Positions 3,105 through 50,977 are shown, numbered from the stretch's first letter. The stretch: DNA of 64,000 nt from Dehalococcoidia bacterium (GCA_965116015.1 OZ220477.1:2020339-2084338), one strand, 5' to 3'. The notes: generated by a model not told the origin, from the letters alone. Made by a program: numbers and translations.

Positions 3105-3434
3105 ATGGCAACACTAGAAGAAAATCTGACGACAGCAGCTGATGCCGCAAAGAACTTGGGAGATTGGCTCGACGATAGAGAGGTATATATAACGAAGGAT
3201 GTTCATCGAGCTATAGCAATGCTGCATTCTAGCCTGGTAGATGCAATGAATAAAGTACAATCAGGAGAGATGGAACAGGCACTAGATATTATGCGACCCA
3301 CGGAAGTTCTAGCTGGTGTAATCGAGTACGTTGTAATGTACTCCCCCGACGAAAGAATGGGTGAAGAAGTAAAAGACTTCGCTACCAGAGCATTCCTAAC
3401 TGCAAGTACAGCCAGACATCAACTGGGGTGGTAG
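3105..3434 (+). CDS. Hypothetical protein
   Basis: 109-aa ORF in a visibly AT-richer stretch. No motif recognised. Confidence 0.4.
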   Translation: MATLEENLTTAADAAKNLGDWLDDREVYITKDVHRAIAMLHSSLVDAMNKVQSGEMEQALDIMRPTEVLAGVIEYVVMYSPDERMGEEVKDFATRAFLTASTARHQLGW

Positions 3435-3455
3435 TTTCGACATCTGCCGCTCAAC

Positions 3456-3480
3456 GCGTGTCATTTGGGATATAATCCCC
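3456..3480. repeat. Transposon terminal inverted repeat, copy A (right-end orientation)
   Basis: GCGTGTCATTTGGGATATAATCCCC is identical to 12510-12534 and is the reverse complement of 5062-5086. Confidence 0.9.
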
Positions 3481-3534
3481 AAATAAAGATACCAAATGAA
3501 TTGCAGGGCTGGGAAGATCTTTCCATAGAAGAAC

Positions 3535-4491
3535 GTGCCCCAGCTCTATCAGAGTGCCTCGCGGAATATGGGATTCCTGACACTGAGTGGAGGGGAGATA
3601 CTAGTCCCGATTGATGGACAGCATCGTGCAAAAGCGCTTGGTTTCGCCATGACCGGCACTAATAGCGACGGGAAATCCATCCCAGGCATAAAGGGCAACA
3701 CCGCGCTTGCCGAAGACTACGCGCCTGTTATACTGATGCGATTCAATGGCCCAGGGGTGCGTCGAATATTCAACAAGATCAATCGATACGCCAGAGCCAC
3801 ATCAAAAGGACAGAACATCATCACGGACGACGATGACTCTCTCGCTGTCCTCACACGAGAATTGCTTGGCGAAGATGGCCTTATCCCTGCCAGACTAGTG
3901 CGGATTGACGCAAACACGCTCACCGCAAAAGCTCCTGAATTCACGACGCTCGCCACGTTTTACGAAGCCAATATAGCTATAGTACTTGGACTTGGACTAG
4001 AGGGTCCAGGCAAACCGCAAGGCATGAATGACGGGAAGAGAGAAGTTGCCACAGAAGCCGCACGACGTATATGGGAAACTCTTCTCCAGCGCGTTGACCT
4101 CTTCTCCGCGGCTTTGGCGGACACCACGGAGCGGGGAGACGGCGCGCGCATCAGAATTCGCGAAGAAACACTGCTCGGCAAACCCATTGGGCAACTAGCT
4201 CTGGTCCGCGCCTTTATGGAGATGCGCGAACGCTGTGCTGGGATTCACGAGACAACCCTTTGCGACCGCCTTAACCGCATCGACTGGAGCATCGACGCCG
4301 ATCTCTGGAGGGGCGTACTCGTGGCCCCGAATGGTCGCGTCCTCGCTGGCAAGACCACCGTAAACAGGGCAGCTATATTCATTGCCCACCTCGGCGGCGT
4401 CCAGCTAACAGCTGGAGAGCGCGAGACGCTCCTCGAAGCAATCCACGGCGAAGACTGGCGTAGCCACCAGCTTCCCAATCCCGTGGCGTAA
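3535..4491 (+). CDS. DGQHR-domain (DndB-like) protein, probably 5'-truncated or degenerate
   Basis: 'ILVPIDGQHRAKALGF' occurs only ~27 residues from the ORF start. In-frame stops lie at 3484 and 3526. The transposon end is 55 nt upstream. Confidence 0.6.
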   Translation: MPQLYQSASRNMGFLTLSGGEILVPIDGQHRAKALGFAMTGTNSDGKSIPGIKGNTALAEDYAPVILMRFNGPGVRRIFNKINRYARATSKGQNIITDDDDSLAVLTRELLGEDGLIPARLVRIDANTLTAKAPEFTTLATFYEANIAIVLGLGLEGPGKPQGMNDGKREVATEAARRIWETLLQRVDLFSAALADTTERGDGARIRIREETLLGKPIGQLALVRAFMEMRERCAGIHETTLCDRLNRIDWSIDADLWRGVLVAPNGRVLAGKTTVNRAAIFIAHLGGVQLTAGERETLLEAIHGEDWRSHQLPNPVA

Positions 4492-5119: not shown

Positions 5120-5797
5120 CTAGGGGTTGCTGGCTACAGCGTATTGGTTGTAGCCGAGGCCGCGAACGTGCGGCTCCCGGTGGAGCAGATTGCGCAGGCG
5201 CCCTAGCTCCGCTGCGTCCCAGCCCATCGCTTCCGCGACCGCCTCGTCCCACAGACGCCGCACCTCGCATTCCCCGTCGCGGAACTGCGGGACGATCGTC
5301 TCCCGCGTACGCTCCCAGCAGTCCGCAAGAACTTGGCGGATGCGGTCATCCTTGATGTCAGGAACCCTCAGATTGCCCGCCTCCGTCGTGCTGTAGATGG
5401 GGAAATTGATTTTCCTTCCAGGGTGTCGCATCAGCTGAAGGCGGCCTGCTGTTGAGTTGATGAATACGGCGAGCGCTTTCGCTTCGGTGGGCGATAACCC
5501 GCTTACCGGCATCCATCCGTTGCCGACATAGCACTCGTCGCTCGCGACTGCGGTCAGGCGTGCGGTTCCCGTGTCTTGCCCAGCCGTCATTAGCAGGTAT
5601 CCGGCCTTTAGCAGGATATTATCGACTTCGGGGTAGGAGCCGCCGCTGGCTCGCCGGATGGTCTCGTTGCGGTTCTTGGGGATCCAGTGCTGGTCGGGTT
5701 GGCTCTGTATCCTCGTTTGTCCATCAGCGCTTTTGGACTTCAAAATCGGGAAACTGCTGGAATCGTGGGCGGTTGCCCGTTTAAAAGAACCGCGCAA
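5120..5797 (-). CDS. Target-recognition-domain-like module, in frame with the upstream Type ISP ORF
   Basis: 225 aa with 'AKALAVFINSTAGRLQLM', the xLNS-type motif seen in methylase specificity domains. Same reading frame as 5816-10075, separated by TAG plus 6 codons. Confidence 0.55.
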   Translation of the reverse strand: MRGSFKRATAHDSSSFPILKSKSADGQTRIQSQPDQHWIPKNRNETIRRASGGSYPEVDNILLKAGYLLMTAGQDTGTARLTAVASDECYVGNGWMPVSGLSPTEAKALAVFINSTAGRLQLMRHPGRKINFPIYSTTEAGNLRVPDIKDDRIRQVLADCWERTRETIVPQFRDGECEVRRLWDEAVAEAMGWDAAELGRLRNLLHREPHVRGLGYNQYAVASNP

Positions 5798-5839
5798 AAG
5801 GCGGCCTGTCTCATCCTAATGAGACAGGCCGCCTTTTGC
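5794..5839 (-). other. Perfect 20-bp-stem hairpin with the Type ISP stop codon in its 6-nt loop
   Basis: Arm 5794-5813 pairs perfectly with 5820-5839. The TAG (5816-5818) lies in the loop. On the minus strand the hairpin is followed by CGCGGTTCTTTTAAA. Confidence 0.85.
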
Positions 5840-8800
5840 CATAGGCTGCAAACCTGCATCGTTGGCGAATCCAAAAGCGGCTTCAGCTAGCTCAGGAGAG
5901 CGCCAGACTGCTGGAGTCCAATCACCATCCTCGATGCGCTCCGCTGGCCACTCAGAGACCTCGCCCCAGCCATGCTCTAGGAGACCGCCTTCGCAGCGTG
6001 TAAGGCAATCGTGCAAGTCCGCTGCTTCATTATTGTCGGATGGCCACCTGTCGAGTTGAATGAATCGAGTGGGGGCCTGATGCTCGCCGCGCCTCTTGGC
6101 AACGATGATGCTCTCGTTAATCTTGACGTGCTGGCTGAGATTGATCTGTCCGGGCAAGTGGCAAGTGAGAACGTCGCTAATGTGGTAGCGCTGGGCTAGC
6201 GTACGCCGTGTAACCGATGCAGACGTTGCTGTCATGGCAATGGTTGGGTGGACCATCGCGAGAACGCTGTGCGATGAGTCCAAGCACTTATCCGCCAGAG
6301 CCACGAACAAGGGCGCTATCGAGTTTTTATCAGCGAAATCTCCCATATCCCTGTCGTTACGGACGAGAGTTTCCTCCATGGTGTCGGCTCGCGACCGCAA
6401 TGCCTGCTGCATTTCTCTAGGGAACTTTTCGCCCATCTTGGCGCGATTAGTGAACGGCGGATTCATAATGACAATGCGGGCGTCTTTGGCGGCGTCCACG
6501 GCGTCTTCCAGTTCGACATCGTCGCGGGGGTCCCACACCTGCTTCGACTTGATGGCCTCGTCCGGCAAGTCCAATTCGCCGACTCTGGGGAGAAGCTCCC
6601 TTTGGCCTAGCAGCTCCAGCGTGCCGGTGAACACCCTTGCGGAGTCATGCGGGGACGGCCCGTAGGGCATCAGGCGCAGCCCCATCCGCCGGTAGCGAAT
6701 CTCGTGGTTGCCCGCCGTCAGCTGCGACGCCGCCAATTGCAGCGACACAGGGTTGATGTCGAGTCCCTTGATAGTGTCCTCGACGGCGAGCTTCTGCAAC
6801 GCGGCTAGCTTCTCCTCGCTGGCGCCCTGCGCTCTGGCGCGGCGCTTCATCTCGGCGAGCATAGCCGCCAGCAGCGTTCCGCTGCCGCAAGCCAGGTCGA
6901 CAATCTTGTGCGCCTTCCAGACTTCAGGGTCGCTCCAGTCCACGTCGCCGCAGGCGTCGAGGGTAAGGCTTGCGGCGATGAACGCCGCCGTTGGCCGCGT
7001 GAAGAACGCCCCGTCGCTCGCCTGATTCCCCATCACGCGGTTGAAGAGCGGCCCTGCGTGGTCAGCGCCCATATCAGCGTAGGTTTCGGCGATGCGCTCC
7101 GCCTCCGCCGCGATGTGCCACAGCGCCCGCTCCAGCCCCGCCAGCTTTCCCGTGTCCTCGGCAGCCTGAATGGCCTTGATCGCAGGATCTAGCACTGCCT
7201 TGAAGTCGCGGCTCATAATCTCGTTCCATTCCCGAAGGAGCCGCCGGACGACGTTGACATCGTTCTTGACGCTCTCCAGGGGGCTTACGCCGGAGATCCA
7301 GCGTCCGCTGGCGATGCGCTGGTGGAGCATTGCGGCGTTCATCATCAGCAGCGCGGCGATAGTGCAGCCGTCGGCCTGCTTGTTGCGGCTCTCCGTCTTC
7401 AGGTTGTCGAGTTGGAAGTGGGCGTCCAGTGCGTTCGACAGGCGGTCTTCGCGCAGATGCCGCGCCGCCTCCCCGACGCCCGCTTCGAGGATGTTCAGAT
7501 CGCGCATCACCCGATTCGTGCGCAACCCCGACTTGGAGAGCAAGTTCACGATGATGGCGTCAGTGAGGTTTGGTGAGGGTGCGGGAACTGATGAGCAGTG
7601 TTGCTTCTCCGCTCCGGCGAGTAAATCGAGTAAGCGCTGAGCGTTGCTCTCTGCGACATCCTCGGTAGTACGCTTGACGCGAGGCGGCAAGCGTATGCCG
7701 GCGTCTTCGTTGATCATTTTCTTGGCTTTGTCGATAGTCTTCTCGATGTTCAACTGTCCCGGTGCGCCGTCCGGTCCGGGATTGTCGCGACCGACGCTGT
7801 CAATGCGCGTCTCGACTTCTCCGCCGTCGTTCACCTTCGCGGTGATGATGGCCGTCGGAATCAGCGGCGTGTCTTCGGAGCCGTAGTCGGTTTCTGGATC
7901 TTCGGTTTCCCGCGCATAATCGTCAAGAGGCGTGAGAGTGCCGGGATAAGTCTGCTGCCCCTTCGCGATGGCCTCGGCGGTTTCTTGCGCTTCCCCTGGC
8001 TTGCCAGCGTGCACCCAAGTCTGGATTTTCGTTTCCGGAGTCGCAGTAGCGACGACGGTGGCTTCCTCTTCCGGTTCGGGAGGCAGGTACACCTTCATCA
8101 AGTGCCTTATCTCGTCTTCAATGCGGCTGTCGTGAGCGCGCAGCGCCCGCAGGATCTGCCCTAGCTCCTGCCATCCGTCTTGCGGCCCGCTGGCGGCCAA
8201 CCACTGCTCGGCTTCCGCATTTGGGGGAAAGACGATAGGGCAGATGATGTACCCCATCTCCTTGCCTTGCGCGCTGCGCATAACGCGCCCCACGGCCTGT
8301 ATGACGTCGATGGGACTCTTGCGCGGCTCCAGGAACGCCACCGCGCTGAGGGACGGCGCGTCCGTGCCCTCCCCAAAGATGCCAACGTTGACGATGCCGT
8401 GCGGGTTCTCCCTGTCAGCGTTCGCCAGCCTACTCTTGGCGTTCTCCCGAGCGGCGACGTTGCTGGTCGCGTCCAAGTGCTCCAGCGTGTACTGCGCTGC
8501 GGCGGGCGCTCGCGGAGTTGCCTCTAGCCGTCCCCTCAGCCACTCCCTTACCTTGTCGGTCTGGAGGTGCCTCGCCATATTCTTCGATTTCTCGACGGTG
8601 TTCATAAAGGCGATGCAAGACTTGATGGACACGCTGTCGACCTCGTTGCTCTGCGTGGCTCCGCCCATTGCCAGCGTGAAAGCCAGCCCGCGGAGAAAGT
8701 GCGTGGTCGTGAGCGACTGCCGCCCCTCGTTCGTGGCGTCCGAAGCCAGCGCGTTTGCCGCTTCGTACGCTTCGAGGTCGTTTACTCCGAGGGCGATGAT

Positions 8801-10075
8801 GCGGTAGTCGGAGAGCCACCCGTTGCTGACCGCCTCCTTATAGCTTCTACGGTACAGCTCAACTCCGAAGACGGTTGCGTCGTCCATACTCCGCACGACC
8901 CAATCCTCTTGCTTGTGGCGCTGCTGCTCTTTGGCGTCGTACACGCGCGGCGTAGCGGTCTGATAGACGCGGTATGTGGCGGGGAATCTGCCGTTGTCGT
9001 GGCAGATGGTGAAGTCGCGCAGCTGCTTCTCCAACTTCGGCATGCGGCGCAGACCCGCCGTGCGGTGCGCTTCGTCGGCGATGAGGACAGCGGCGACGGC
9101 TCCGGACGCGACCAGCGCTTCGCCTATCTTGTGGCTGCTCTGATAGGTCCCGAAGATGACGTTGACTCGTTCGCTGCTCTGCCCTGCGCGTATCCAGTCG
9201 GCAATCTCCCCTGAGTCGGTGGTTACCTTGCCTTTCACCTCAGACGCGCTGACGTAGCTTGCGTCCAGCGTGGGGTCGGCGGCGCGGTCCAGCGAACTCT
9301 CCTTAGGGGCGACGGTTGGATCGGAGCACACGGCGAGCGCACAGATGGACTTGCGAGCGTTCTGCAAGTACTCGCGCCGTATCTGGGCGACAAGCGCTAT
9401 GGAAGGGCATAGCACGACAGCCAGCTCTCCCTGCTGGGTCAGCTCCTCGATGATGCGCAGGGAGATGCGGGTCTTGCCCGTGCCGCAAGGAAGGACGATC
9501 TTCCCGCGAGCCTGTCCTGCCGGCAGCCCGCCGCTATCCGACTGTACGTGCTCCTTGAGGGCGTTGACGCTCTCCTCCACGGCCTCGTTCTGCATGCACT
9601 GCAGAGTTTGGCGGGGCGGGTTGCCGTCGTCGTCGCGCGCGGCGTCCGGGTCGCAGTGAGGGCAGTACTCAGCCTGCTCGACGAGCGGCTGGGCGAGAAG
9701 GTCGGCGTGGATGTTGACGAGCTTGAGTTGCTGCGCGGCTACAGACAAGCCCTGCTTGGCTTCGCTGCTCAGCTGATTGGCGCCGTTGGTGACAAGCCAG
9801 CGCTCCGCCCAAATCGGCGCGCTGGCGGCTGCGGTGAACTTGTCCAGCTCGCCTTTGTGGATATCGTCGCCCTTGCCAGAGGCATCAAGCTTCCGCGCCT
9901 TGCACTGGATGGCTATGTACTGATCGCCGCGTTTGGCGACGGCATCGATGCCGACATCCGTTCTGGTGGATTCTGGGAAACGCCCTGTCCGTTCGGGCCA
10001 GTCGCCCCAGAGCCAGCACTCCTCGATGTCCCAGTCCTTGATGTGCGGCCCTGCCTCGACGACGAGGTTCTCCAA
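5816..10075 (-). CDS. Type ISP-like restriction-modification enzyme (Mrr-like nuclease + SF2 helicase + gamma-class N6-A methyltransferase)
   Basis: PD-(D/E)xK-like 'DVGIDAV...IAIQCK'. Helicase motifs 'CGTGKT', 'IADEAHR', 'QTATP', 'QAVGRVMR'. Methylase motifs 'DLACGSGTLL' and 'IMNPPFT'. TTG start. Confidence 0.8.
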   Translation of the reverse strand: MENLVVEAGPHIKDWDIEECWLWGDWPERTGRFPESTRTDVGIDAVAKRGDQYIAIQCKARKLDASGKGDDIHKGELDKFTAAASAPIWAERWLVTNGANQLSSEAKQGLSVAAQQLKLVNIHADLLAQPLVEQAEYCPHCDPDAARDDDGNPPRQTLQCMQNEAVEESVNALKEHVQSDSGGLPAGQARGKIVLPCGTGKTRISLRIIEELTQQGELAVVLCPSIALVAQIRREYLQNARKSICALAVCSDPTVAPKESSLDRAADPTLDASYVSASEVKGKVTTDSGEIADWIRAGQSSERVNVIFGTYQSSHKIGEALVASGAVAAVLIADEAHRTAGLRRMPKLEKQLRDFTICHDNGRFPATYRVYQTATPRVYDAKEQQRHKQEDWVVRSMDDATVFGVELYRRSYKEAVSNGWLSDYRIIALGVNDLEAYEAANALASDATNEGRQSLTTTHFLRGLAFTLAMGGATQSNEVDSVSIKSCIAFMNTVEKSKNMARHLQTDKVREWLRGRLEATPRAPAAAQYTLEHLDATSNVAARENAKSRLANADRENPHGIVNVGIFGEGTDAPSLSAVAFLEPRKSPIDVIQAVGRVMRSAQGKEMGYIICPIVFPPNAEAEQWLAASGPQDGWQELGQILRALRAHDSRIEDEIRHLMKVYLPPEPEEEATVVATATPETKIQTWVHAGKPGEAQETAEAIAKGQQTYPGTLTPLDDYARETEDPETDYGSEDTPLIPTAIITAKVNDGGEVETRIDSVGRDNPGPDGAPGQLNIEKTIDKAKKMINEDAGIRLPPRVKRTTEDVAESNAQRLLDLLAGAEKQHCSSVPAPSPNLTDAIIVNLLSKSGLRTNRVMRDLNILEAGVGEAARHLREDRLSNALDAHFQLDNLKTESRNKQADGCTIAALLMMNAAMLHQRIASGRWISGVSPLESVKNDVNVVRRLLREWNEIMSRDFKAVLDPAIKAIQAAEDTGKLAGLERALWHIAAEAERIAETYADMGADHAGPLFNRVMGNQASDGAFFTRPTAAFIAASLTLDACGDVDWSDPEVWKAHKIVDLACGSGTLLAAMLAEMKRRARAQGASEEKLAALQKLAVEDTIKGLDINPVSLQLAASQLTAGNHEIRYRRMGLRLMPYGPSPHDSARVFTGTLELLGQRELLPRVGELDLPDEAIKSKQVWDPRDDVELEDAVDAAKDARIVIMNPPFTNRAKMGEKFPREMQQALRSRADTMEETLVRNDRDMGDFADKNSIAPLFVALADKCLDSSHSVLAMVHPTIAMTATSASVTRRTLAQRYHISDVLTCHLPGQINLSQHVKINESIIVAKRRGEHQAPTRFIQLDRWPSDNNEAADLHDCLTRCEGGLLEHGWGEVSEWPAERIEDGDWTPAVWRSPELAEAAFGFANDAGLQPMAKGGLSH

Positions 10076-10475: not shown

Positions 10476-10670
10476 TTACTTTCTCCTACGCTTCTCGCCT
10501 AGGAGTAGTCGGTCAACGTCCTCCTTTGGTATCCGCACTACTCGCACTGGCAATGCCGCACGAGTTAGTTCACCTCGCTTGAGCAGCCGTCGCACCGTAG
10601 GTTGCGACACCCTGAGAATCGCAGCCGCCTCTGCAACTGTCAACACCTTATTCGACTCTGGTTCTCTCAT
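10476..10670 (-). CDS. Excisionase/MerR-type HTH protein (copy 2)
   Basis: 64 aa, near-identical to 898-1101 apart from a one-codon indel and a divergent C-terminus. Confidence 0.7.
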   Translation of the reverse strand: MREPESNKVLTVAEAAAILRVSQPTVRRLLKRGELTRAALPVRVVRIPKEDVDRLLLGEKRRRK

Positions 10671-10806
10671 ATCCTCTACTATGCTCTGATATTTTCTATA
10701 GTATGCATAAATGCTCTAAAAGAGTCAATAGGCATCACATATACCCTTGACTATTCTGCTGAGTCATGGTAGAGTGGGGCGAAATGACCCAGCCCTAGAG
10801 GTGGAC

Positions 10807-11751
10807 ATGGCGAAATGCGGTCCAGGTCGGTATGAGCGAAAGGGAATCAGCCTGAAAGAAGCGGTGGAGCTTGCGGCGGACAATGCCGCAGCTGAGCAGT
10901 GGTTCGAGAGCGTCCGATGGCCTGACGGCGTACGATGCCCACGCTGCGATGGAAGCAACATCCTCGAACGCAAGAACCGCAAGCCGATGCCCTACAAATG
11001 CCGATCCTGCAACCGCAACTTCTCGGTCAAGGTGGGAACAGTGATGCAGGCGAGCAAGATCCGCTACGGCGACTGGTGGCTCGCCTGCTACCTGCACTCC
11101 ACGAACCTCAAGGGCGTGTCCAGCATGAAGCTGTCGCGCGACCTCGGACTCACCCAGAAGCACGCGTGGCACCTGCTCCACCGCATCCGCAAGGCTTGGG
11201 ACGATAGCAGCACCCCGCGCTTCGACGGAAAGGTCGAAGCCGATGAGACCTACATCGGGGGCAAGGAGCGGAACAAGCACGAGTCGAAGAAGCTGCGCGA
11301 AGGGCGGGGCGCAGTCGGCAAGGTCGCAGTCGTCGGCGTGAAAGACCGCGATACCGGCATGGTCAAGGCAAAGGTCGTTCCGTCCACAGACGCCCGCACG
11401 CTACAAGGATTCGTCGAGGAGGCCACTGAGCCTGAAGCCACCGTCTACACCGACGAGGCGCGTGCGTATCAAGGGATCAACCGCCAGCACGAGGCGGTCG
11501 CCCATAGCGCAAAGGAGTTCGTGTACGGGCATGCTCACACGAACGGGATCGAGAGCATGTGGTCGATGATGAAGCGTGGCTATATGGGCGTGTACCACCA
11601 CTGGAGCGCCAAGCACTGCCAGCGGTATGTTGACGAGTACGCCGGACGGCATAACGCCCGCCCGCTCGACACCATCAAGATACTGGCGCGAATCGTAGTC
11701 GGGATGAATGGCAAACGCCTGACTTACCCCCAGCTCATCGGCACGGTGTAG
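10807..11751 (+). CDS. IS1595-family DDE transposase (copy 2)
   Basis: 314 aa with only 4 substitutions relative to 1246-2190. Confidence 0.85.
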   Translation: MAKCGPGRYERKGISLKEAVELAADNAAAEQWFESVRWPDGVRCPRCDGSNILERKNRKPMPYKCRSCNRNFSVKVGTVMQASKIRYGDWWLACYLHSTNLKGVSSMKLSRDLGLTQKHAWHLLHRIRKAWDDSSTPRFDGKVEADETYIGGKERNKHESKKLREGRGAVGKVAVVGVKDRDTGMVKAKVVPSTDARTLQGFVEEATEPEATVYTDEARAYQGINRQHEAVAHSAKEFVYGHAHTNGIESMWSMMKRGYMGVYHHWSAKHCQRYVDEYAGRHNARPLDTIKILARIVVGMNGKRLTYPQLIGTV

Positions 11752-11795
11752 TGGGGCGGTACGCAGAGTGAAGGAGTTGATTGAGTTAACCCAAG

Positions 11796-12434
11796 CTATC
11801 GCGGGTTCCCTTTGCGCGTTTTTGGATAGCGAGCGCGGGCAGGTCGCTGCTTGCTCCGAGATTCTCCTGTGTAGTTGCTGACAGCATCCCTAATGTTTAT
11901 CTTTAGAAGGTTGCGGTAGTCCTTGAATGCCGGGATCTCCAAATCACTAGGCACACCTCTATGCATCTTGCCTAGAGCGGAAACGAAATCACGGGCGATA
12001 GACGCATTGGCCTCTAGCATCGACGGTGTCATCACATCGTCATAGTAGTTGGAATGCGCCGCCTGCGCTGTATTCCAACCAGCGGAGACGACCTTTACAG
12101 TTTCAGCCGCATCAGGCGCGCCAGTCTCACTATATTCAGACGCCAACCACTCCACGACTGCGGAGAGACTTTGATGCGATTTAGTCGGCCATCCCCTCTC
12201 TGCCGCAATCTTTTTGACAGCATGCGCCGCAACTCCCCACACCATCTCGGACGCAGCGATGCGCTCCTTGCGCGTCCGCAACTCCTTGCCGAGAATCTGT
12301 AGGTTCTCAACGTGATACTCGTGCGGAGATTGAGGTTCGCCGATGATGTATGCAGCGACTTCCTTGTCGAGATAGTCTAAATCCTCAGGACGCTTATCCG
12401 CAGCCGCTTTGAGCTTCGATTCTAACGTCGTCAT
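11796..12434 (-). CDS. Hypothetical protein, possibly PaREP1/HEPN-like; paralog of 2432-3073
   Basis: Shares motifs with 2432-3073. Lies between the transposase and the right terminal repeat, as in the other element, but on the opposite strand. Confidence 0.5.
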   Translation of the reverse strand: MTTLESKLKAAADKRPEDLDYLDKEVAAYIIGEPQSPHEYHVENLQILGKELRTRKERIAASEMVWGVAAHAVKKIAAERGWPTKSHQSLSAVVEWLASEYSETGAPDAAETVKVVSAGWNTAQAAHSNYYDDVMTPSMLEANASIARDFVSALGKMHRGVPSDLEIPAFKDYRNLLKINIRDAVSNYTGESRSKQRPARARYPKTRKGNPR

Positions 12435-25074: not shown

Positions 25075-25102
25075 GAGCTGTTTCGGCACGCCGAAACAGC
25101 TC
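25075..25102. terminator. 12-bp perfect hairpin between convergent or unrelated units
   Basis: GAGCTGTTTCGG-CACG-CCGAAACAGCTC. No clear U-tract on the plus strand; TTTCT follows on the minus strand. Confidence 0.3.
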
Positions 25103-31938: not shown

Positions 31939-34900
31939 CTAGCCCTCTAGCCCGTCAGAACAGACAGTGCGGACCACCTGCGGCTCGCGCGCCTGTGGAC
32001 GATCGGAATCCTCGGGCGGAGCGAGACGGAAACGCGCGCGCAGCGCCTCCAGCCGTGTGCGGAGCTCTGAACCAGCCAATCCCTGCTCCCGAATCTTGCT
32101 CAACTCCTGCTCCGCCTGCTGCGGCAGATCCCCCGTAAAGATGCGCCGGAGCGCGTCGATGCGCCCCGCATCGACCGCCTCCCCCGCCTCTCGCAGCGCG
32201 GCATTGAGCCGCCCCGACACGTAGCGCCGCGCTCGCGAGTCATGGGATCTCCTCGCCCTCCCCAAGCGACGTTGAAACTCCCGCTTGAACGCCTCGAACG
32301 CAGCCGTCACCCGCTCGTTCGTATCTTCCGGCAGCGGCTCCGCCGGAGCGTCCGGCTCGCACCTCGCCGCCTCCACGAACTGCGCCGGAGTGATAGCCCG
32401 CGGCTGAAGATCAGACCCAACTGCGTAGCAACCGTTCACCCCTCGCGATCCTCCCGCGCCCAGCAGAACGATAGTCTCCGAAGGCTTGGGAGCCTCGAAC
32501 GGCGACGGCGCCATCGTCGCCGGCGACATCAGCGGCGCCTGCTCCCCGTCGACCGTCGCCCCGTTCCGCGCGTAGTTGTCGTCGCCGAACTCCGACCGCT
32601 CCGGACGCGCCCTGAGCGCCGACCGTATCCCGTCGGGAAGCTCCGTGATCGTTCGCCAAAGCTCAGGATCGCCCTCCTTGATTCGCTGCAACTCCGCCGT
32701 CGCATGCTGATGCGCTGTCACCTCGCCCAGCCCATCCTCCGCATCCGGCATCTCCTTCCTGTCGTAGATGCAATAGAGCGCATCGTCGTTAAGATGCTCC
32801 CCCTCAGACAGCAGCTGGTTATCCAGCCCTATGGCGTCGTGAAACGACTGAATGCGGCGCCCTACCCGCTCCGTCAAGGATAGACCCGCATCCACCTCCA
32901 CATCCGGCCACATATTGTGCAACCGGATGACAGAATGCCGCGTTCCGATGCGGTCCACCCGCCCGAAACGCTGGATGAGACGCACCGGATTCCAGTGCAG
33001 ATCGTAATTCAGCGCCCGGGCGCAGTCCTGCAAGTTCTGACCCTCCGAAACAATGTCCGTGGCCAGCAGAATTCTGATCTCCGGCCCCGGACGCTTCTCA
33101 TTTCGCGACAGGTTCGACCCCGGAGAGAACCGCTTGACCACGCTCTCCGCCTGATGTCGCACGCTCCCCGTCAGCATCGCGATTCCCGGATCGCCCTCCC
33201 CTGGATTCAGCTCCCGATACAGATACGAAATCGTCGTCTCCGCCTCCGAGAAGATCAGAATCTTCTCGCCCTTCACCTCCTCCCGCTCCAGGAAATCCCG
33301 CAGCGCCCGCAGCTTGTCGTCGTCCTCCGCCGTGATGCCGCTCACCCGCGACAGAACGCCGCTCAGAACCCCGTGATCCGCATCGAGGTCGTCCATCCAC
33401 CTGACAACATCGAAGTCGGCGACATCATGAACCAGCTTGGCGCTCGCATTCCCCTGCCCTCGCCGCCGCTCCTCTTCCTGCGACAGCATCTCCAGGAGAT
33501 CCCCCGCCTCGAAAGCCTGACCCGCCAGCATCCGCGCCGCCGTATCGCCGATAGGAACGTACCCGCCCCCCAGCGCCGACCGGAAGTTCCGATTGCTCTG
33601 ACTCAACGCCCTCAGCGTGGAGCGGAACGCCTCGATGCTCGACTCCAACCGCTTGAGTAACAGCACGTTCATCAGCGCGGCGATGCGGTGCGCCGCCCTG
33701 AACAAATCCCGGTACTCGTCCTTGCCCCTCGCTTCCGCCCTCACGTAATCAGTAGCCCGGTACCGCGCCCCCTTGTGCTGGCGCAGTCCTCCCACTAGCT
33801 CCTCCAGAGAGCCCGCCTTCGCGTAGACCCTATCGAGACGATACGCAACATTGTCCAGAACCGGCTCCGGAAAAACGACCGGCTCCCCCGCCACCATTGC
33901 CGTATCACCGTACAGCCGCTCGATATCCTTGCGCCTCCGCCGTATGAACACAGGAGCCAGCGCCTGCGCGATATCCGCCTTCGGAACCGATGGCGCGGCC
34001 GGCGGCAGCGGAGGCGCCGTCGCCGCCTTGCTCGCTTCCCACGCCCTGAACTCCCGCTCGTACTCCTCGAACTCAGCCCGATGTTGCTGCCACCTCTGAG
34101 CGTTGTTGAAATACGCGCTCAGGCTCGCCGGCTCGATATTCAGCCCGTGCTCCATGTCGTCGAGAAAGAGCGTCAGCTGCCGGTAAATGTCCATCGGCCC
34201 CAGATTCTGCGGCGTCGCGCTGAGCAAGATTACCTTGTGGTCGCCAGACTCTAGGTAGCTGCGCAACCCGATGGACCGCCGATTCACGTTGCGGAAGTTA
34301 TGAGCCTCGTCCACCAGCACCGCCCCCCTGTTGGGATACGCCTGCCCCAGAACGATTCCCTGCCCCGCCCTCTCAGACTCCACATACCGCCCCAACTCCT
34401 CGTCGAACTCAGCGTCCGGAGGCGGCGCGACGACGCTGTGCGAAACAACCGCCGCTCCCAGCGCGAACCGCTCGTTGAACGACTCCCACATCGACTTCAG
34501 CCCCGCCGGACACAGAATCAGCGGCGGCCCGTCGTTCGGATAGCTCGCCCGCAGCTGCCGCAGCAGCTCCGCCCCCACATACGTCTTCCCCAGCCCAACC
34601 ACATCGCCGATATAAGCTCCCCCGTGCTCCTCAATCATCCGCAGCCCCTGACGCACCGCATCCATCTGAAAATTCGCCAGCTCCTCCGTGCGCTGAGGCC
34701 GAAGCTCGACATCCGGAACATCTGCGTAGTACAGCTCGTACAGCCCCTTCAGATAAACGTGATACGGAGGCGTAGCCGCCAGCGGCCACGACCGCGCCAG
34801 CGCCGCCTCGAGCGCCTCGCTGATGTCCTGCGAATCCTTCCACAGCGTCTCGAACCACTCGCGCAGAGCCTCCATCTCCGCATCCCCAGTCACGCGAACA

Positions 34901-35439
34901 TTCAGCTCCGTATTCCCCGAGAACCCCGCAAGCGTCATATTCGACGACCCCACCACCGCCGCTCCCGGCTCCGCATGATTCTCGTACCAGCACAGGTACG
35001 CCTTCGCGTGCAGCGGACTCCGAAGATACGCCCTAACCTCCGCCTTCCCCGACGCAATCATATCGCGCAGCGAGCGCACCGCCCGCTCCGAATCAGCATC
35101 CTGTGGAAGAGACGCCACCCCGGCCGCGACGTGCTCCACCGACTCCCGAGCCGCGCTCTCCCGCTCCCGACGCTGCACGATGCTGTCCGCCTCCAGTTGC
35201 GCCCGCAGCGCCTCGGCCTGCTGCGCCCCGAGCGCCGCCTCCTCCAGCGTCGGACGATCCGACCGCCCCACAAGAATGCGAACCTTCTCCAGCCGCTCGA
35301 AACTACCCGCCACCTTTTGGAACCCCGACATAAACAGATAGCCCACCGCGATATCCGCCCGCGCCGAACTCCCAAGCATCTCCTGCAGCCGCGTCAGCAG
35401 ATTAGGCTCAGTCGTCGCATGCAGAATGTTCATAGCCAT
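31939..35439 (-). CDS. PLD-family nuclease domain fused to an SNF2-family helicase, with a long uncharacterised C-terminal region
   Basis: Single HKD-type motif 'LHAKAYL...VGSSNMT' at the N-terminus. SNF2 motifs 'GLGKT', 'VLVDEAHNFRN', 'LLSATPQN', 'SEGQNLQD...WNPVRLIQRFGRVDRIG'. Confidence 0.8.
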   Translation of the reverse strand: MAMNILHATTEPNLLTRLQEMLGSSARADIAVGYLFMSGFQKVAGSFERLEKVRILVGRSDRPTLEEAALGAQQAEALRAQLEADSIVQRRERESAARESVEHVAAGVASLPQDADSERAVRSLRDMIASGKAEVRAYLRSPLHAKAYLCWYENHAEPGAAVVGSSNMTLAGFSGNTELNVRVTGDAEMEALREWFETLWKDSQDISEALEAALARSWPLAATPPYHVYLKGLYELYYADVPDVELRPQRTEELANFQMDAVRQGLRMIEEHGGAYIGDVVGLGKTYVGAELLRQLRASYPNDGPPLILCPAGLKSMWESFNERFALGAAVVSHSVVAPPPDAEFDEELGRYVESERAGQGIVLGQAYPNRGAVLVDEAHNFRNVNRRSIGLRSYLESGDHKVILLSATPQNLGPMDIYRQLTLFLDDMEHGLNIEPASLSAYFNNAQRWQQHRAEFEEYEREFRAWEASKAATAPPLPPAAPSVPKADIAQALAPVFIRRRRKDIERLYGDTAMVAGEPVVFPEPVLDNVAYRLDRVYAKAGSLEELVGGLRQHKGARYRATDYVRAEARGKDEYRDLFRAAHRIAALMNVLLLKRLESSIEAFRSTLRALSQSNRNFRSALGGGYVPIGDTAARMLAGQAFEAGDLLEMLSQEEERRRGQGNASAKLVHDVADFDVVRWMDDLDADHGVLSGVLSRVSGITAEDDDKLRALRDFLEREEVKGEKILIFSEAETTISYLYRELNPGEGDPGIAMLTGSVRHQAESVVKRFSPGSNLSRNEKRPGPEIRILLATDIVSEGQNLQDCARALNYDLHWNPVRLIQRFGRVDRIGTRHSVIRLHNMWPDVEVDAGLSLTERVGRRIQSFHDAIGLDNQLLSEGEHLNDDALYCIYDRKEMPDAEDGLGEVTAHQHATAELQRIKEGDPELWRTITELPDGIRSALRARPERSEFGDDNYARNGATVDGEQAPLMSPATMAPSPFEAPKPSETIVLLGAGGSRGVNGCYAVGSDLQPRAITPAQFVEAARCEPDAPAEPLPEDTNERVTAAFEAFKREFQRRLGRARRSHDSRARRYVSGRLNAALREAGEAVDAGRIDALRRIFTGDLPQQAEQELSKIREQGLAGSELRTRLEALRARFRLAPPEDSDRPQAREPQVVRTVCSDGLEG

Positions 35440-35451
35440 TCTCCAGTGCCA

Positions 35452-36276
35452 TCACACACTCCGCGCCCGGCGCAGACGATCCCCCACCAGCTTCGCGACC
35501 CCCTCGTACACCGCATCGCGCTCCCCCGACGTCAACCCCAGCGCGTCGAACACCGCGTCGTCCACCTCACGCCGCGCAGCCGACGGCGCAAGCACATCCC
35601 ACTCCGTGCTCTCGAACACTCCCGCGTCTACCTCCGGCAATAGCTCAGGGTTGACTATGGAAAGATTCCTTGTCTCGTAAGTTTGAATCTCTAGCACTCC
35701 TTCTCCGAAATTCGATCTGCTTTCGATATTCACCATCAGTTGGAACAGTGTTGAGTTGATGGCTTGGCATAGCTGTATTGAAGAAACACTGTCGGTTGCA
35801 GACATCACCTGGAAATTGTCAGTGAACAGAGCCCCCGATACTGCCAAGAAAGCCCGCGCGACCGTATTCACGAATTTGTTCATTCCCAGATGAACATTGT
35901 CCCGTTTTCCCAAATCGTACCATCGATGTCGAGACATGATTCCCTTCGTGAGATTAAATCCTTTCCGTTCGCCCCATTCGATGTATTTCAGCGCACCGGA
36001 GCCCCTCAGATTGCCTTTTGCCATATGGCACATGAACAGACGCTTCGGCAACGCCGCCGGATTCACGACAATGTTGCGCGATTCCCGAGGCGTGCTCATA
36101 ACAGGACGGCAGTACTCCGGCTCGATGCCGAACTCAGCAATGCGCTCCGATGTCAAACAGAAGAAAGCATTAGCCCCGGTCAAGACACCGAGCCGCACAG
36201 TCGCCACATCGCCTAGCCTCGCGAGCCTGTCACCGTACTTCGCCCGGATATGATGATAGATATCCGGCGCGCGCAA
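35452..36276 (-). CDS. C-terminal specificity (TaqI_C/TRD-like) part of the methyltransferase, in frame with 36421-38613
   Basis: 'LGDVATVRLGVLTGANAFF' and 'LCQAINSTLFQLM'. The frame is open and continuous up to the TAA at 36421-36423. TTG at 36276 is preceded by GGGGAGGA. Confidence 0.65.
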   Translation of the reverse strand: MRAPDIYHHIRAKYGDRLARLGDVATVRLGVLTGANAFFCLTSERIAEFGIEPEYCRPVMSTPRESRNIVVNPAALPKRLFMCHMAKGNLRGSGALKYIEWGERKGFNLTKGIMSRHRWYDLGKRDNVHLGMNKFVNTVARAFLAVSGALFTDNFQVMSATDSVSSIQLCQAINSTLFQLMVNIESRSNFGEGVLEIQTYETRNLSIVNPELLPEVDAGVFESTEWDVLAPSAARREVDDAVFDALGLTSGERDAVYEGVAKLVGDRLRRARSV

Positions 36277-36393
36277 GTACTTTCCTCCCCACTTATCGCC
36301 GACATACTTGCCGTCGCTCGTTCCCGCGGCAATCAGCTCATCGCGGCTCTTGCGTATCTCGCGCCGTTGAGTTGGGTCAGAAACCGCAATCGC

Positions 36394-36445
36394 GAATTGG
36401 GCGCGTAGCGACGAGTCTCTTTACTCGTCGCTACGCGCCCAATTC
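36394..36445 (-). other. Perfect 23-bp-stem hairpin spanning the methyltransferase stop codon
   Basis: Arm 36394-36416 pairs perfectly with 36423-36445. The loop is 36417-36422. The TAA (36421-36423) sits at the loop/stem junction. Confidence 0.85.
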
Positions 36446-38613
36446 CTGCTGACAACACTGATTATCGTATTGATATCCGCGGTAGCGAACTGCCGCTCCA
36501 CCGCGCTCTCGTAGATTGCTTGCACATGCGCGTTCGTCAGCAAATACTCCTGCAATTTCGCTCCGTAACTCACATCCAGCCAGCTGTTGGAGCACACGAA
36601 TACGTGCATACCGCCCTTGCGCAGCAGCTGCAATCCCCGCGCATAGAAATAGCAGTACAGGTCGGAGCGCGCGACAACAGCATCCCCGTACTGCTTGACT
36701 AGCGCTGCCTTATCAAGCTTGGCCAGACCGGCCTTCTCCGAGCCGATAAGCTCCTGCCGAACATACGGCGGATTAGCGATTGCCACGTCGAACCCCCCGC
36801 GTCCAGCGAACACCTCGGCGAACTCCACCCTCCAGTCCACCACCCCGCACTTACGCTCCAACGCTCCCATAGCCGCGCGCAACTCGCCCTTCAGCGACTC
36901 AATCTCACCGCGCAGCCACTGCTTGCGTCCGCCATCGGATTCGCGCAAGTACTCCCCCTTCAGCTCCCCCAGCCGCCGGACGCGCTCCACATCCTGCCCC
37001 AGCGTGCCCTGAACCTCCACTCCCGCGCTCGGATCCGGCCCGCCCAAGCTGTCCCCCTGCACAATCTTGAGATCAAGGTTGGGCAACGGCTCCGGCGCAT
37101 CCCCGTCATGCTCAATCGCCAGCGACAACCACAACCGCAGCATAGCAATGTTGACCGCAAACTCGTCGATATCCACGCCGTAGAGATTGCGCTGGATAAT
37201 TTCCAGCTTCAGTTCGTACAGGCTCTTGGCGTCCACGCCGGCGTTGTAGAGCGCCGACTGCAACTCGATAAGCTCCTGCATCATCCCCAGCAGATACGCG
37301 CCGGAGCCGCATGCCGGATCCGCCACAGTTACTTGCGCCAGCGCGTCCGCAATCCTCCGCGCCTGCGCCATCCCCAGCCCATCAGTGTCGTGAGCGTTCA
37401 CGAACCGCTCAACCGCGTCGTCGTCGAGCTCAGGAACCTGTCCCTTCAGGTAGCCCTTGAGCGCCTCCCCGCACATAAACGACACCACCTGCCGCGGCGT
37501 GTAGTACGCCCCCGACGAATGTCGCCCCGTAACCAGCTCCTCGAACACCTTCCCCAGCATCTCCGGGTCAACCGCAACCTCAATATCGAATGGCGTAGAC
37601 TCCATAACCGTGAAGTTGAAGCGATCGAAGAGCTCGCTCAGAACGCGCTCGATAATCGCGTCCGGCACAACGACGCCGTCGACCTTGTCCGGATCAGTCC
37701 TCTCGAACAGTCCGCCATTGAGAAAAGGAACATGCCCAATGAGGGGATCCAATCCCCTAGTCAAGTTCCTCGAATCCGGATTGTTAAGTCCATTGAAGAA
37801 CAGCGGCTGAAGCCTCGACTTGTAGAAATTGCTATCCCCCGACGCTTGGTGTGCATTCCACAGAGCGTTGAGATAGTCGTAGTCCCTCCGCCTCTCCTTG
37901 CCCTCGCCCTCCTCAAGGTGGAGCCAGCCCTTGCGCTGCAAGAAATACACGAACATCAAACGGTTGAAGAGAGTGAGAACGAACATCCGCCGGTCGTTGT
38001 CGTCGTTTGGGAACCCTGAAATACTAGCCTCCGCCGCAGCGAATATCCTCTTGTACGCCTCGAAGAATTCCCGCGTAACCGGCTCCACATCGAAAGCCTG
38101 CCGCAAAGCAATGCGGATGTTCCCGCTATCACTGTAACGCCAGTAGATTTTGGACACCTGCTGAACAGCAGTGCGTCGCGCCAGATCGCGTTCCACAGTC
38201 ATCCGCCTCAGCGTGGGCCTCGCGCCCTCGAAGCTCGGCAACACAAGCTGCAAACGCTCCCCCCGCTCATCCACGACCGCCAGCAGCAAGTCGTCCCCTA
38301 AATCCTTGGCGAGCGCCCGCGCGGCGGCGACTACCGCATCCTTGCGAACGCGCCCCGATTTCGACGCCGGCAAGCGGACAAGCGCAACCTGAACGCCGTC
38401 CAGCTCCGCTATGCGCTCTGCCGCGTCGGGGAGCCGCATCCCGGCGGCGGCTCCTGCCAGGCTCACCTCCCCGTTAGCGGCGTGGAAGTCCAGCGCCTCC
38501 ACGAACAACCTGCGCACAGCAGTGCCAAGACTCTCCCGCGACGCCGAAGAGGCGGCGGCAAAGATCTCCTCGATATGCCTCTCCACATCTCGCGCGTCAT
38601 CCAGTCTTTGCAT
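36421..38613 (-). CDS. N6-adenine DNA methyltransferase, MmeI/PglX (Eco57I)-like, truncated by an in-frame stop
   Basis: 'FVYFLQRKGW', 'VPFLNGGLFE', motif I 'ADPACGSGAYLL', motif IV 'IANPPYV'. Confidence 0.8.
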   Translation of the reverse strand: MQRLDDARDVERHIEEIFAAASSASRESLGTAVRRLFVEALDFHAANGEVSLAGAAAGMRLPDAAERIAELDGVQVALVRLPASKSGRVRKDAVVAAARALAKDLGDDLLLAVVDERGERLQLVLPSFEGARPTLRRMTVERDLARRTAVQQVSKIYWRYSDSGNIRIALRQAFDVEPVTREFFEAYKRIFAAAEASISGFPNDDNDRRMFVLTLFNRLMFVYFLQRKGWLHLEEGEGKERRRDYDYLNALWNAHQASGDSNFYKSRLQPLFFNGLNNPDSRNLTRGLDPLIGHVPFLNGGLFERTDPDKVDGVVVPDAIIERVLSELFDRFNFTVMESTPFDIEVAVDPEMLGKVFEELVTGRHSSGAYYTPRQVVSFMCGEALKGYLKGQVPELDDDAVERFVNAHDTDGLGMAQARRIADALAQVTVADPACGSGAYLLGMMQELIELQSALYNAGVDAKSLYELKLEIIQRNLYGVDIDEFAVNIAMLRLWLSLAIEHDGDAPEPLPNLDLKIVQGDSLGGPDPSAGVEVQGTLGQDVERVRRLGELKGEYLRESDGGRKQWLRGEIESLKGELRAAMGALERKCGVVDWRVEFAEVFAGRGGFDVAIANPPYVRQELIGSEKAGLAKLDKAALVKQYGDAVVARSDLYCYFYARGLQLLRKGGMHVFVCSNSWLDVSYGAKLQEYLLTNAHVQAIYESAVERQFATADINTIISVVSRNWARSDE

Positions 38614-49423: not shown

Positions 49424-50977
49424 TTGCCTCGCATTACACCCCCCTGCCTCGCGATCATCGCTCTCGCTCTCATCGGGGGAGGATGCGCGGCGCAATCTCC
49501 CGAACCCACACCCGACGTCGCCGCGACCGTCGCCGCCAGCGTTGCAGCGACTATCGCCGCACAGCCGACCCCCACGCTCGCTCCGATATCGACGCCCACG
49601 CTTGCGCCTACTGCGACCCCTACGCCAGTGCCGACCCCTACTCCTACTCCCACCTTCACGCCGATGCCAACGCCCACGCTTGCGCCTACTGCGACCCCTA
49701 CGCCAGTGCCGACCCCAACCCCTACTCCCACCTTCACGCCGACGCCAACGCCCACGCTTGCGCCTACTGCGACCCCTACGCCAGTGCCGACCCCAACCCC
49801 TACTCCCACCTTCACGCCGACGCCAACGTTTACCCCCACTCCCACCGGCACTCCAACTCCAACACCCATTTCAAGTGTCGAAGACGTTATCGCTGAGGTT
49901 GCGGCGAGCGTCGTGCACATCGTTGCCGACAACTTGCATGGCTCCGGCGTTGTCGTGCGCGAGGACGGCATAGTCTTAACTGCCTATCACGTAGTGCGGG
50001 GAGCTAGCAGCATCATCGTCGAGTTCCCAGATGGATCGAGGGAAGAAGGCGTTCTGCGAGGTCGCGACATAGGCCGCGACCTCGCAGTCATCAGCGCCAA
50101 ACGCACGGGGCTCAACGCCATTCCCTTCGCCGACCCAGGAGAACTCCGAGTCGGCCAATCGCTCATCAAGCTGGGTTACGGAGCAGGCGTCGAAGGCACA
50201 GCTGCTGTTACATTCGGAGTCGTATCGACCCTGCTCGAACCGACGCGCGTCACGCCTGCGCGAGTACAAACCGACAACGCCATCAGCAGCGGAGACTCAG
50301 GGGCTCCGCTTATTACGCGCGACGGACGCATGGTCGCAGTAGTAACCACCAAACTCATTGGCATTCACATTGAGGGCATCAGCTACGGTAGTCTTCTGGA
50401 AAATGGCGACTCCCTCGTGGACAGAATGGCCGAGGGCGAAGTCATCTGCCAGCCGGCGCCTCCGCTCACCCCCGCGGCCGCCGATGCAAGTTCCACATAT
50501 CGCAACAGCGACTGGGGCTGGTTCATTCAACTCCCGACCCACTACTCCTATCTCGACTTTGAGCGAGGCGCCCTCTTTCACCGTTCGGATGAGCCCGTGT
50601 ATCCCGTCGACGCGAGATCCCAGTGGCCCGCGCTGGTCTATGTCTACCCCCCTTGGCTAAAAACTGCTTACCCCAGCGCGGAAGCCTTGATAAGCGCCGC
50701 CCTCAGAGTGTTCGAGGACCAGGGTCTCGGAATCCACCCTCGCAACAGCGTACGAGAAGTCTGCCGTGGCAGCGATCTGTCCTGGGAGCAAGACTTCAGG
50801 CTCGTCAACCAGGTGCGTGGCTACGTGGAGGAGAACCGCTTTCTGGTGGTCGACGATGGCTCGCTCTGGTATCTGCTCCACGTAGTTACCTGGCCGAACC
50901 AGCTCGATCGATACAGCGAAGAGACGGACACGATCCTCTATTCATTCCGCTCGAACAGAACGCCGCTCGAGCCATGA
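49424..50977 (+). CDS. Lipoprotein with a Thr/Pro-rich linker, a trypsin-like serine protease domain and an extra C-terminal domain
   Basis: Lipobox 'LIGGGCA', 'LTAYHVV' (His), 'SGDSGAPL' (Ser). Same architecture as the transposon-split gene. Confidence 0.8.
49592..49825 (+). repeat. Three tandem 78-bp (26-aa) Thr/Pro-rich repeats
   Basis: ACGCCCACGCTTGCGCCTACTGCGACCCC... recurs at 49592, 49670 and 49748. Confidence 0.85.

Follow-up and report, generated by a model that had tools for sequence, protein, structure and literature searches.

Several kinds of small, local DNA rearrangement have been described that resemble the one considered here. Recurrent hairpin-loop "minute inversions" are known from plastid DNA (Kelchner & Wendel 1996, via PMC6005162), where the few loop bases that separate two perfect arms are inverted at a single stroke, recurrently, with no change in length and no recombinase, in non-coding spacers or introns and with no phenotype. 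Template switching creates and maintains perfect stems, makes multi-base compensatory changes and inverts loops, in RNA genes, microRNAs and mutational hotspots (PMC8794818). In intragenic invertons an inversion of tens of bp (e.g., 57 bp), predicted to be mediated by an invertase, recodes a gene from within or adds a premature stop to it, giving two products per gene (PMC10028968). Finally, phase-variable restriction-modification (R-M) genes are toggled by local, high-rate, potentially reversible mutation, in simple-sequence repeats or through hsdS inversion (PMC6265443), and truncation ahead of the target recognition domain (TRD) turns off restriction and modification together. Here we analyze a 64,000-nt stretch of the genome of a Dehalococcoidia bacterium (GCA_965116015.1, OZ220477.1:2020339–2084338; "the window" below), in which two R-M genes on the minus strand are each interrupted by an in-frame stop codon at the loop of a perfect palindrome (sites 1 and 2).

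On balance we favor the view that the TAG codon at site 1 is the OFF state of a very small and probably reversible DNA inversion, a flip of the loop of a palindrome that template switching keeps perfect. The resemblance to plastid minute inversions, in the features just given, lies in the short loop, perfect arms and unchanged length, but the present palindromes are inside the coding sequence of bacterial defense genes, where a flip changes codons, some of them to stops. With template-switch hairpins they share perfect stems made in one step, compensatory changes, loop inversions and arms that evolve in concert; unlike those, their stems of 12–23 bp stand at fixed codon positions across phyla, and one arm dictates the amino acids of the other. 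As in intragenic invertons the inversion would lie wholly within the gene and recode it or create a stop, but it would span only 3–11 nt (4 and 6 nt in the window), and a spacer of 4–6 nt is probably too short for synapsis. In contrast to known phase-variable R-M systems there is no alternative hsdS cassette, the sequence read at the two sites shows no simple-repeat tract, the neighboring open reading frames (ORFs) that were scanned contain no recombinase domain, and heterogeneity in the population is only suggested.

The site 1 palindrome consists of two 21-nt arms, 100% complementary, around a 4-nt loop (coordinates of this and other features are collected in Table 1). On the minus strand positions 5839–5794 are GCAAAAGGCGGCCTGTCTCAT-TAGG-ATGAGACAGGCCGCCTTTTGC, and the gene reads ..MAKGGLSH TAG DETGRLLRGSFKR.. 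through it; as RNA the hairpin has a folding energy of −50.3 kcal/mol (z = −6.5). A first-pass annotation of the window had correctly recognized an in-frame TAG in the loop of a perfect hairpin here, giving it 20-nt arms and a 6-nt loop that are a subset of the 21-nt arms and 4-nt loop, and it had also pointed out the recurrence of the arrangement at 36394–36445 in an unrelated methylase, where we find perfect 23-nt arms and a TAA codon. It missed the key point, which is that inversion of the loop alone removes the stop: with CCTA in the loop the site 1 codons become CAT CCT AAT GAG (H P N E), and with the site 2 loop inverted the frame encodes E S L Y S S L R. Beyond the TAG the site 1 frame is open to position 5120, and the full reading stretch of 1652 codons contains no stops other than the TAG and the natural end; the site 2 frame is open beyond its TAA to position 35452. 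The window has no further perfect hairpin with a stem of 14 bp or more, and 20 shuffles of the window gave none of that length (longest stem, 12). Arms and loops of the window palindromes are also present in independent Logan contigs of runs X1 and X2, and because such contigs and metagenome-assembled genomes (MAGs) from different assemblers hold the hairpins, we reject an artefact of assembly or sequencing.

A query over the site 1 junction found hundreds of one-chain proteins, 56–69% identical, that span both sides of it, and 80 genome loci with site 1 homologues were fetched, of which the 74 full-length ones were used for hairpin counts with a perfect stem of at least 12 bp as the threshold. 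All 80 are in MAGs from many phyla, mostly recognizably sponge-associated (Dehalococcoidia, Caldilineaceae, Rhodothermales, Gammaproteobacteria, Poribacteria and others), and most of the homologues are full-length fused enzymes in a single frame. One Rhodothermales MAG (OZ241874.1) has three paralogues, and a protein of 1000 aa (P0001) carries the methylase-C-terminal/TRD module of the family twice in tandem. Homologues have ..A GLS xxx TG(Q/R)LLRGSF.. in the place of ..G GLS H*DE TGRLLRGSF.. in the window; both arms align, and the window is longer by one codon at most. The alignment of homologues proposed in the first-pass annotation thus reveals no inserted hairpin arm or loop, and insertion of a mobile palindromic element (REP, MITE or attC) is excluded because the length is unchanged; in addition, the two window palindromes have no sequence relationship to each other, and a comparison with Rfam gave no match.

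The 74 homologous genes contain 39 perfect hairpins (0.128 per kb), located in 30 genes at three fixed positions, namely the main site that corresponds to site 1 and two others, one lying about 500 nt upstream and the other about 35 nt downstream. The 3-kb downstream flanks of the same loci contain two (0.009 per kb), and codon-order shuffles of all 74 genes predict 0.2. Two examples from the main site are AGCAGCTGGCCTGTCG-GCACAAG-CGACAGGCCAGCTGCT in locus L003 and CAGAATCTGGCCTGTCGCC-TTG-GGCGACAGGCCAGATTCTG in locus L029. Stem length at the shared center is bimodal among 62 loci (1–8 bp in 35 and 9–19 bp in 27). Six loci (L009, L016, L018, L019, L026 and L076) have, at about 3458–3504, an alternative perfect 15-bp hairpin with arms that encode RVLRG and RAEHG; the left arm of this hairpin and the outer right arm of the main one overlap, and the two hairpins look mutually exclusive because the main-site stem in these loci is at most 9 bp.

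The arms of the homologous hairpins covary, with a score of 0.221 compared to 0.160 ± 0.009 in shuffles (0 of 500 as high) and 0.05–0.12 when the partners are slid, and single arm pairs show up to four Watson–Crick types. A silent GGC>GGT (Gly) change in the right arm is paired with Gly>Asp in the left arm in L034 and L005, and a silent ACA>ACC (Thr) change with Leu>Arg in L013, L068 and L005. Since silent right-arm changes are mirrored as left-arm amino-acid changes, Watson–Crick perfection overrides protein conservation, which points to copying of one arm from the other at the DNA level and not to selection on an RNA fold. At both window sites the downstream arm encodes family-conserved residues and the upstream arm a variable linker. 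The first-pass annotation did not expect a mismatch-free palindrome to persist in coding sequence; dozens of homologues with 56–71% protein identity contradict this, with perfect 12–19-bp hairpins at the same position and covarying arms. Because of these the palindrome is taken to be old and only its loop state new, so that from the earlier suggestion of a recent template-switch mutation the mechanism survives, as the best one for the palindrome, but the recent date does not.

Could the hairpin instead be selected for a function of its own, with the stop incidental? It might be a regulatory structure in mRNA or DNA, a replication or recombination hotspot for specificity-domain exchange, or a means of recoding the linker by flips. 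The three fixed sites, all near the methylase–TRD boundary in many phyla, fit such a function, as do the L021 gene and its close relative, which have no difference in the 56-nt hairpin region and 27 in the 398 nt compared (about 7%), and the fact that in 38 of 41 loops (below) a flip merely recodes. We nevertheless think it unlikely, as the arm sequences are not conserved as a binding protein would need, selection on RNA structure does not require strict Watson–Crick perfection at an amino-acid cost, the 35 loci with stems of 1–8 bp do without the hairpin, many of them with similar residues, and the sponge relatives of the site 2 family have none.

In different genomes of the family, the same arms enclose loops that are reverse complements of each other. 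Three loop pairs are listed in Table 1, and each is three adjacent substitutions if made by point mutation as opposed to one event if made by inversion. Together with perfect arms of unchanged length and multi-base compensatory changes, these loops are what template switching and loop inversion leave behind. Stops are enriched in the loops: a tblastn search of the 80 homologues flagged seven in-frame stops, one of which (L082) is the natural gene end, and two of the seven lie in 3-nt loops of 18-bp perfect hairpins (L021 and L013), loop codons being about 3 of about 1370 per gene. In all five stop-in-loop cases (the two window sites, a relative of site 2 in run X3, L021 and L013) loop inversion opens the frame. 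Among 41 homologue hairpins, 38 are open in both orientations, one (L010) would gain a stop if flipped, and two have stops now.

The sequence of events that we envisage is as follows. Template switching during replication would copy one arm from the other, with the downstream arm, which encodes the conserved TGxLLRGSF, serving as master and the upstream arm in the variable linker following it. Between perfectly complementary arms an interstrand template switch could then invert the few loop bases in one step, with no need of a recombinase. Quasipalindrome correction in E. coli, attributed to Ripley and Lovett, is reportedly a related process. In one loop orientation the gene would read ..GLS HPNE TGRLL.. 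and specify the full 1651-aa enzyme, and in the assembled orientation the TAG would leave a 1419-aa protein that lacks the TRD; loss of the TRD would abolish both restriction and modification, and would therefore be a safe way of switching the system off. The site 2 palindrome would act alike on its Type IIG-like methylase. We infer the template-switch mechanism, the reversibility and rate of the flip and its phenotype, and that it is an evolved switch is unproven.

Metagenome contigs bear on reversibility. In run X1 contigs break exactly at the site 1 palindrome; the left contig ends ..CAT-CCTA-ATGAG, and the right contig starts CTCAT-TAGG-ATGAG and continues into the right flank, which is the loop opposite to that of the window (plus strand). 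Such flipped-loop words cannot derive from the window sequence alone. As internal controls, contigs from the same run pass unbroken through the longer site 2 palindrome and through the L021 palindrome, which makes a generic fold-back or library artefact unlikely, and no flipped-loop words were present in the contigs at site 2 or L021. This pattern suggests that both site 1 loop orientations coexist in X1. The window genome and the Caldilineaceae MAG that carries L021 are both in run X1, so at least three OFF-state hairpin genes are present in one metagenome sample; relatives (93% and 88% identical, respectively, to L021 and site 2) are in X3, from the same study.

Coding sequence beyond the stops is intact. 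The TRD part in the window keeps 89 of 90 near-invariant family residues (median homologue, 96%). After the site 2 stop, comparison with the X3 relative gives 8 synonymous and 8 non-synonymous codon changes (an omega of roughly 0.3, from small numbers), and between L021 and its 93%-identical X3 relative, which has the same hairpin and the same TAG, third codon positions account for 14 of the 22 differences listed (7 of 11 after the stop). From these figures, selection appears to have acted on both sides of the stops.

This intactness, apparently under purifying selection, speaks against plain and effectively irreversible pseudogenisation, in which the loop of a mutation-prone palindrome gained a stop by inversion or point changes and the gene is dead, will decay and does no relevant switching. 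So do the different stops (TAA and TGA) at different codons in the two site 2 lineages, which are not one inherited lesion, and the flipped-loop words in X1. We judge pseudogenisation to be the clearly less probable account, but several observations are in its favor, most of which also count against a loop-flip switch. About 17 of the 80 homologues have a frameshift (one or two frame changes) and 4–5 have ordinary nonsense mutations, which bespeaks rapid turnover and common plain pseudogenisation in the family, the frequent frameshifts in L003–L082 reflecting either common pseudogenes or MAG assembly errors. Of 42 perfect hairpins, no more than 4 (window site 1, L013, L021 and L010) have a stop in one or the other loop orientation, the share of loops that carry one (about 5–7%) is near the random-loop expectation, and since 38 of 41 are open either way the family hairpin is not generally an ON/OFF device. 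The stop-capable loops are all OFF except that of L010; both window sites, the X3 relatives and L021 are among those that are OFF, and the stop that L021 has in common with its 93%-identical relative is as compatible with a stable state as with frequent toggling. Further points against the loop-flip reading are that either loop orientation may be the ancestral one at site 1, that the site 1 hairpin matches a simple terminator pattern too, and that the break at site 1 in X1 was read from Logan contigs and its interpretation is sensitive to the assembler's treatment of branches.

At site 2, where the downstream arm again carries the conserved residues, the family is contiguous at the junction (..GDATRFVSLRAEF.. 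vs ..RSDE*RDSSLRAQF.. in the window). The X3 relative is about 88% identical with no gaps and its palindrome is again perfect, with four paired compensatory arm changes and two loop changes relative to the window, and its stop is TGA, one codon later than the window TAA. The flipped loops read T-H-F-V-S-L-R in X3 and S-L-Y-S-S-L-R in the window, compared to T-R-F-V-S-L-R in the family, and because they encode such native-like residues the open orientation is taken as the ancestral coding one at site 2. No family-wide hairpin was found here in 80 distant metagenome loci, nor any in three sponge relatives of 62–64% identity, two of them from ENA samples that also hold homologues of the site 1 family; because these relatives lack it, the site 2 palindrome is lineage-specific and arose in the lineage of the window. 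A third, more distant site 2 relative is present in an X3 contig (aligned to window 36246–36316 and 36458–36513) in which 141 nt around the junction are swapped for 153 unalignable letters, and the junction is therefore a divergence hotspot.

The first-pass annotation also suggested that the hairpin is a terminator or attenuator that splits the R-M core gene from its TRD, the latter being made separately from the downstream ORF. At site 1 an inner GC-rich 15-bp stem has TTTT directly after it, and the hairpin plus GCGCGGTTCTTTT fits a terminator scan. Stand-alone C-terminal-domain proteins also exist in the site 2 family (P0219, P0228 and others). However, homologues read the same position as one contiguous ORF and their hairpins, followed by CTGCGCGGCTC.., have no T-tract (U-tract in RNA) and do not mark a true end of the gene; a T-tract is missing at site 2 as well. 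Neither stop is followed by a start codon that has a ribosome-binding site: the earliest in-frame start at site 1, a TTG, is within the arm and lacks a Shine–Dalgarno sequence, and the earliest one at site 2 is 48 codons downstream and its use would lose residues conserved with the X3 relative. Such a split is thus poorly supported and to our minds improbable; among RNA runs none holds the locus. Two proteins considered as evidence of a conserved split at site 2 (P0203 and P0236) were rejected, as both loci are degraded, one (L001) by a frameshift and insertion sequence (IS) and the other (L002) by an internal deletion, and neither has a hairpin.

The L001 IS (DDE_Tnp_1) is inside the site 2-family methylase gene (1158–2993), with the frameshift at the junction, and the gene for the PLD-plus-helicase partner (1166 aa) is downstream, so the pairing of methylase and partner seen in the window occurs there as well. 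P0219, P0228, P0230 and P0233 are stand-alone proteins of 329–339 aa on long contigs that start near ..YLRAPDIYH.. of the site 2 C-terminal domain and have an extra conserved tail, ..APGVNDxNLKDVIxxLEDxEFLEKLG; they may be free specificity subunits.

For translational recoding, i.e., readthrough of the stop or hairpin-promoted ribosome bypass that yields full-length protein despite it, the intact and selected same-frame coding sequence after the stop in four lineages would be expected. But the stops are of three different kinds (TAG, TAA and TGA), no matching take-off and landing codons spare the conserved residues (CAT precedes the site 1 stop, and a ribosome that resumed at the closest in-frame His codon, 19 codons further along, would skip the conserved TGRLLRGSF), and the Rfam comparison was negative. 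We know of no bacterial mechanism that uses a stop in an apical loop. Recoding therefore seems to us very improbable, and for the readthrough switch raised in the first-pass annotation we found no evidence.

Table 1. Positions and readings of the palindromes, loops and genes discussed in the text (window coordinates unless a locus is named)
Feature	Position (strand)	Reading or content
Site 1 upstream arm (gene direction)	5819..5839 (−)	Encodes A K G G L S H; "slave" arm, variable linker
Site 1 loop	5815..5818 (−)	TAGG on coding strand; TAG at 5818–5816
Site 1 downstream arm	5794..5814 (−)	Encodes (D)E T G R L L, within family-conserved TG(Q/R)LLRGSF; "master" arm
Site 1 upstream ORF	5816..10075 (−)	1419 aa; Mrr-like nuclease, SF2 helicase motor, N6-adenine methylase (NPPF); Type ISP-like
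Site 1 in-frame continuation	5120..5815 (−)	231 codons; C-terminal target-recognition part of Type ISP-like enzyme
Site 2 palindrome	36394..36445 (−)	23-nt perfect arms 36394–36416 / 36423–36445; 6-nt loop 36417–36422 (AAAGAG, coding strand); TAA at 36423–36421
Site 2 upstream ORF	36421..38613 (−)	730 aa; Eco57I/MmeI-type (Type IIG / PglX / DrmMI-like) N6-adenine methylase
Site 2 in-frame continuation	35452..36420 (−)	C-terminal M_Eco57I_C-type specificity domain of the methylase
Site 2 partner gene	31939..35439 (−)	1166 aa; PLD (HKD) nuclease and Snf2-like helicase
L021 hairpin	3429–3467	G L L P TAG A T G; P M A with the loop inverted
L013 hairpin	2931–2969	S R N T V TAA P C F V; T V T P with the loop inverted
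L010 hairpin	3433–3475	Loop open now; flip gives a stop (PGL*REPTGQ)
Loop pair AGC / GCT		L025, L031 / L014; peptides SPAAT / SPLAT; L018 also GCT, on an 8-bp stem
Loop pair TGC / GCA		L047, L033 / L005; peptides SPAAT / SPQAT
Loop pair GCG / CGC, upstream site		L004, L015 / L068; peptides TVRP / TVAP

In the protein encoded at site 1, an N-terminal Mrr-like PD-(D/E)xK nuclease (Pfam Mrr_cat_2, E = 1.5e-12, residues 17–132) is followed by a motor with ResIII, DEAD and Helicase_C domains, and in phmmer comparisons residues 20–659 match LlaBIII/LlaGI (PDB 4xqk, 5ffj) with E about 1e-54. The methylase in the same chain has an NPPF motif and an S-adenosylmethionine-binding DLACGSG motif, with Pfam methyltransferase matches under the cut-off, and PADLOC identifies the protein as REase_MTase_IIG, a fused restriction endonuclease–methyltransferase (E = 1e-98). 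A TRD-like part continues the frame, as one stretch with the rest in homologues, and the TAG cuts it off in the assembled sequence; the specificity-domain-like motif that the first-pass annotation placed in the same-frame downstream ORF (FINSTAGRLQLMR) is present there. Sequence comparison thus supports a single-chain Type ISP-like R-M enzyme of 1651 codons, as that annotation had also held. LlaGI and LlaBIII have the same order of Mrr-like nuclease, SF2 (superfamily 2) motor, N6-adenine methylase and C-terminal TRD in a single chain (about 1580 aa compared to 1651), but the methylase–TRD half of the window protein has no detectable sequence match to these solved enzymes, and the site 1 family is known here only from sponge-symbiont MAGs. 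To our knowledge no coding palindrome has been described for either enzyme.

The site 1 gene is part of an island that also includes a DndB-like gene (3535–4491), an N6/N4 methylase gene and unknown ORFs, around and between two direct copies of an IS1595-family element that bracket it. These copies, at 919–2250 and 10491–11800 (approximate ends), are 95–96% identical and have transposase ORFs at 1180–2190 and 10747–11751. Sample X2 has site 2 but is missing the site 1 island, and the island may therefore move as a composite unit.

Two shorter perfect hairpins in the window lie apart from the R-M genes. The first, at 50054–50087, has a 13-bp stem and an 8-nt loop, both orientations of which are open, within an HtrA/trypsin-like protease gene (49424–50977), and because of it coding palindromes in this genome are not confined to defense genes. 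The second, a 12-bp hairpin at 25075–25102 (GAGCTGTTTCGG-CACG-CCGAAACAGCTC), is between an NADH-dehydrogenase-subunit-like gene and an H+-pyrophosphatase gene and is probably an ordinary terminator.

A broader proposal, which we put forward tentatively and with well under even confidence, is that these elements are "micro-invertons", coding palindromes kept by template switching with loops of 3–11 nt that flip often, and that they serve as recombinase-free contingency loci whose arm perfection is selected for ON/OFF control of R-M or for linker recoding in sponge symbionts. We found no literature in which bacterial R-M genes are described as having stop codons in flippable hairpin loops, which is not proof of novelty, and no report that combines loop inversion of the plastid type, the consequences of an intragenic inverton and the biology of phase-variable R-M. 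Inversions of 3–11 nt would be missed by short-read callers and inverton finders, and genes with a stop in the loop are called as two ORFs or as pseudogenes even though one small inversion restores them.

Regardless of switching, perfect 12–23-bp palindromes at fixed codon positions over phyla are unusual in protein genes, as are silent changes in one arm that force amino-acid changes in the other, and this hairpin family is a natural system in which to measure template switching against protein constraint. Known phase variation of R-M genes depends on repeat tracts or on recombinase-driven inversions; if the loop-flip reading is true, a perfect hairpin with its small loop would add a third way.

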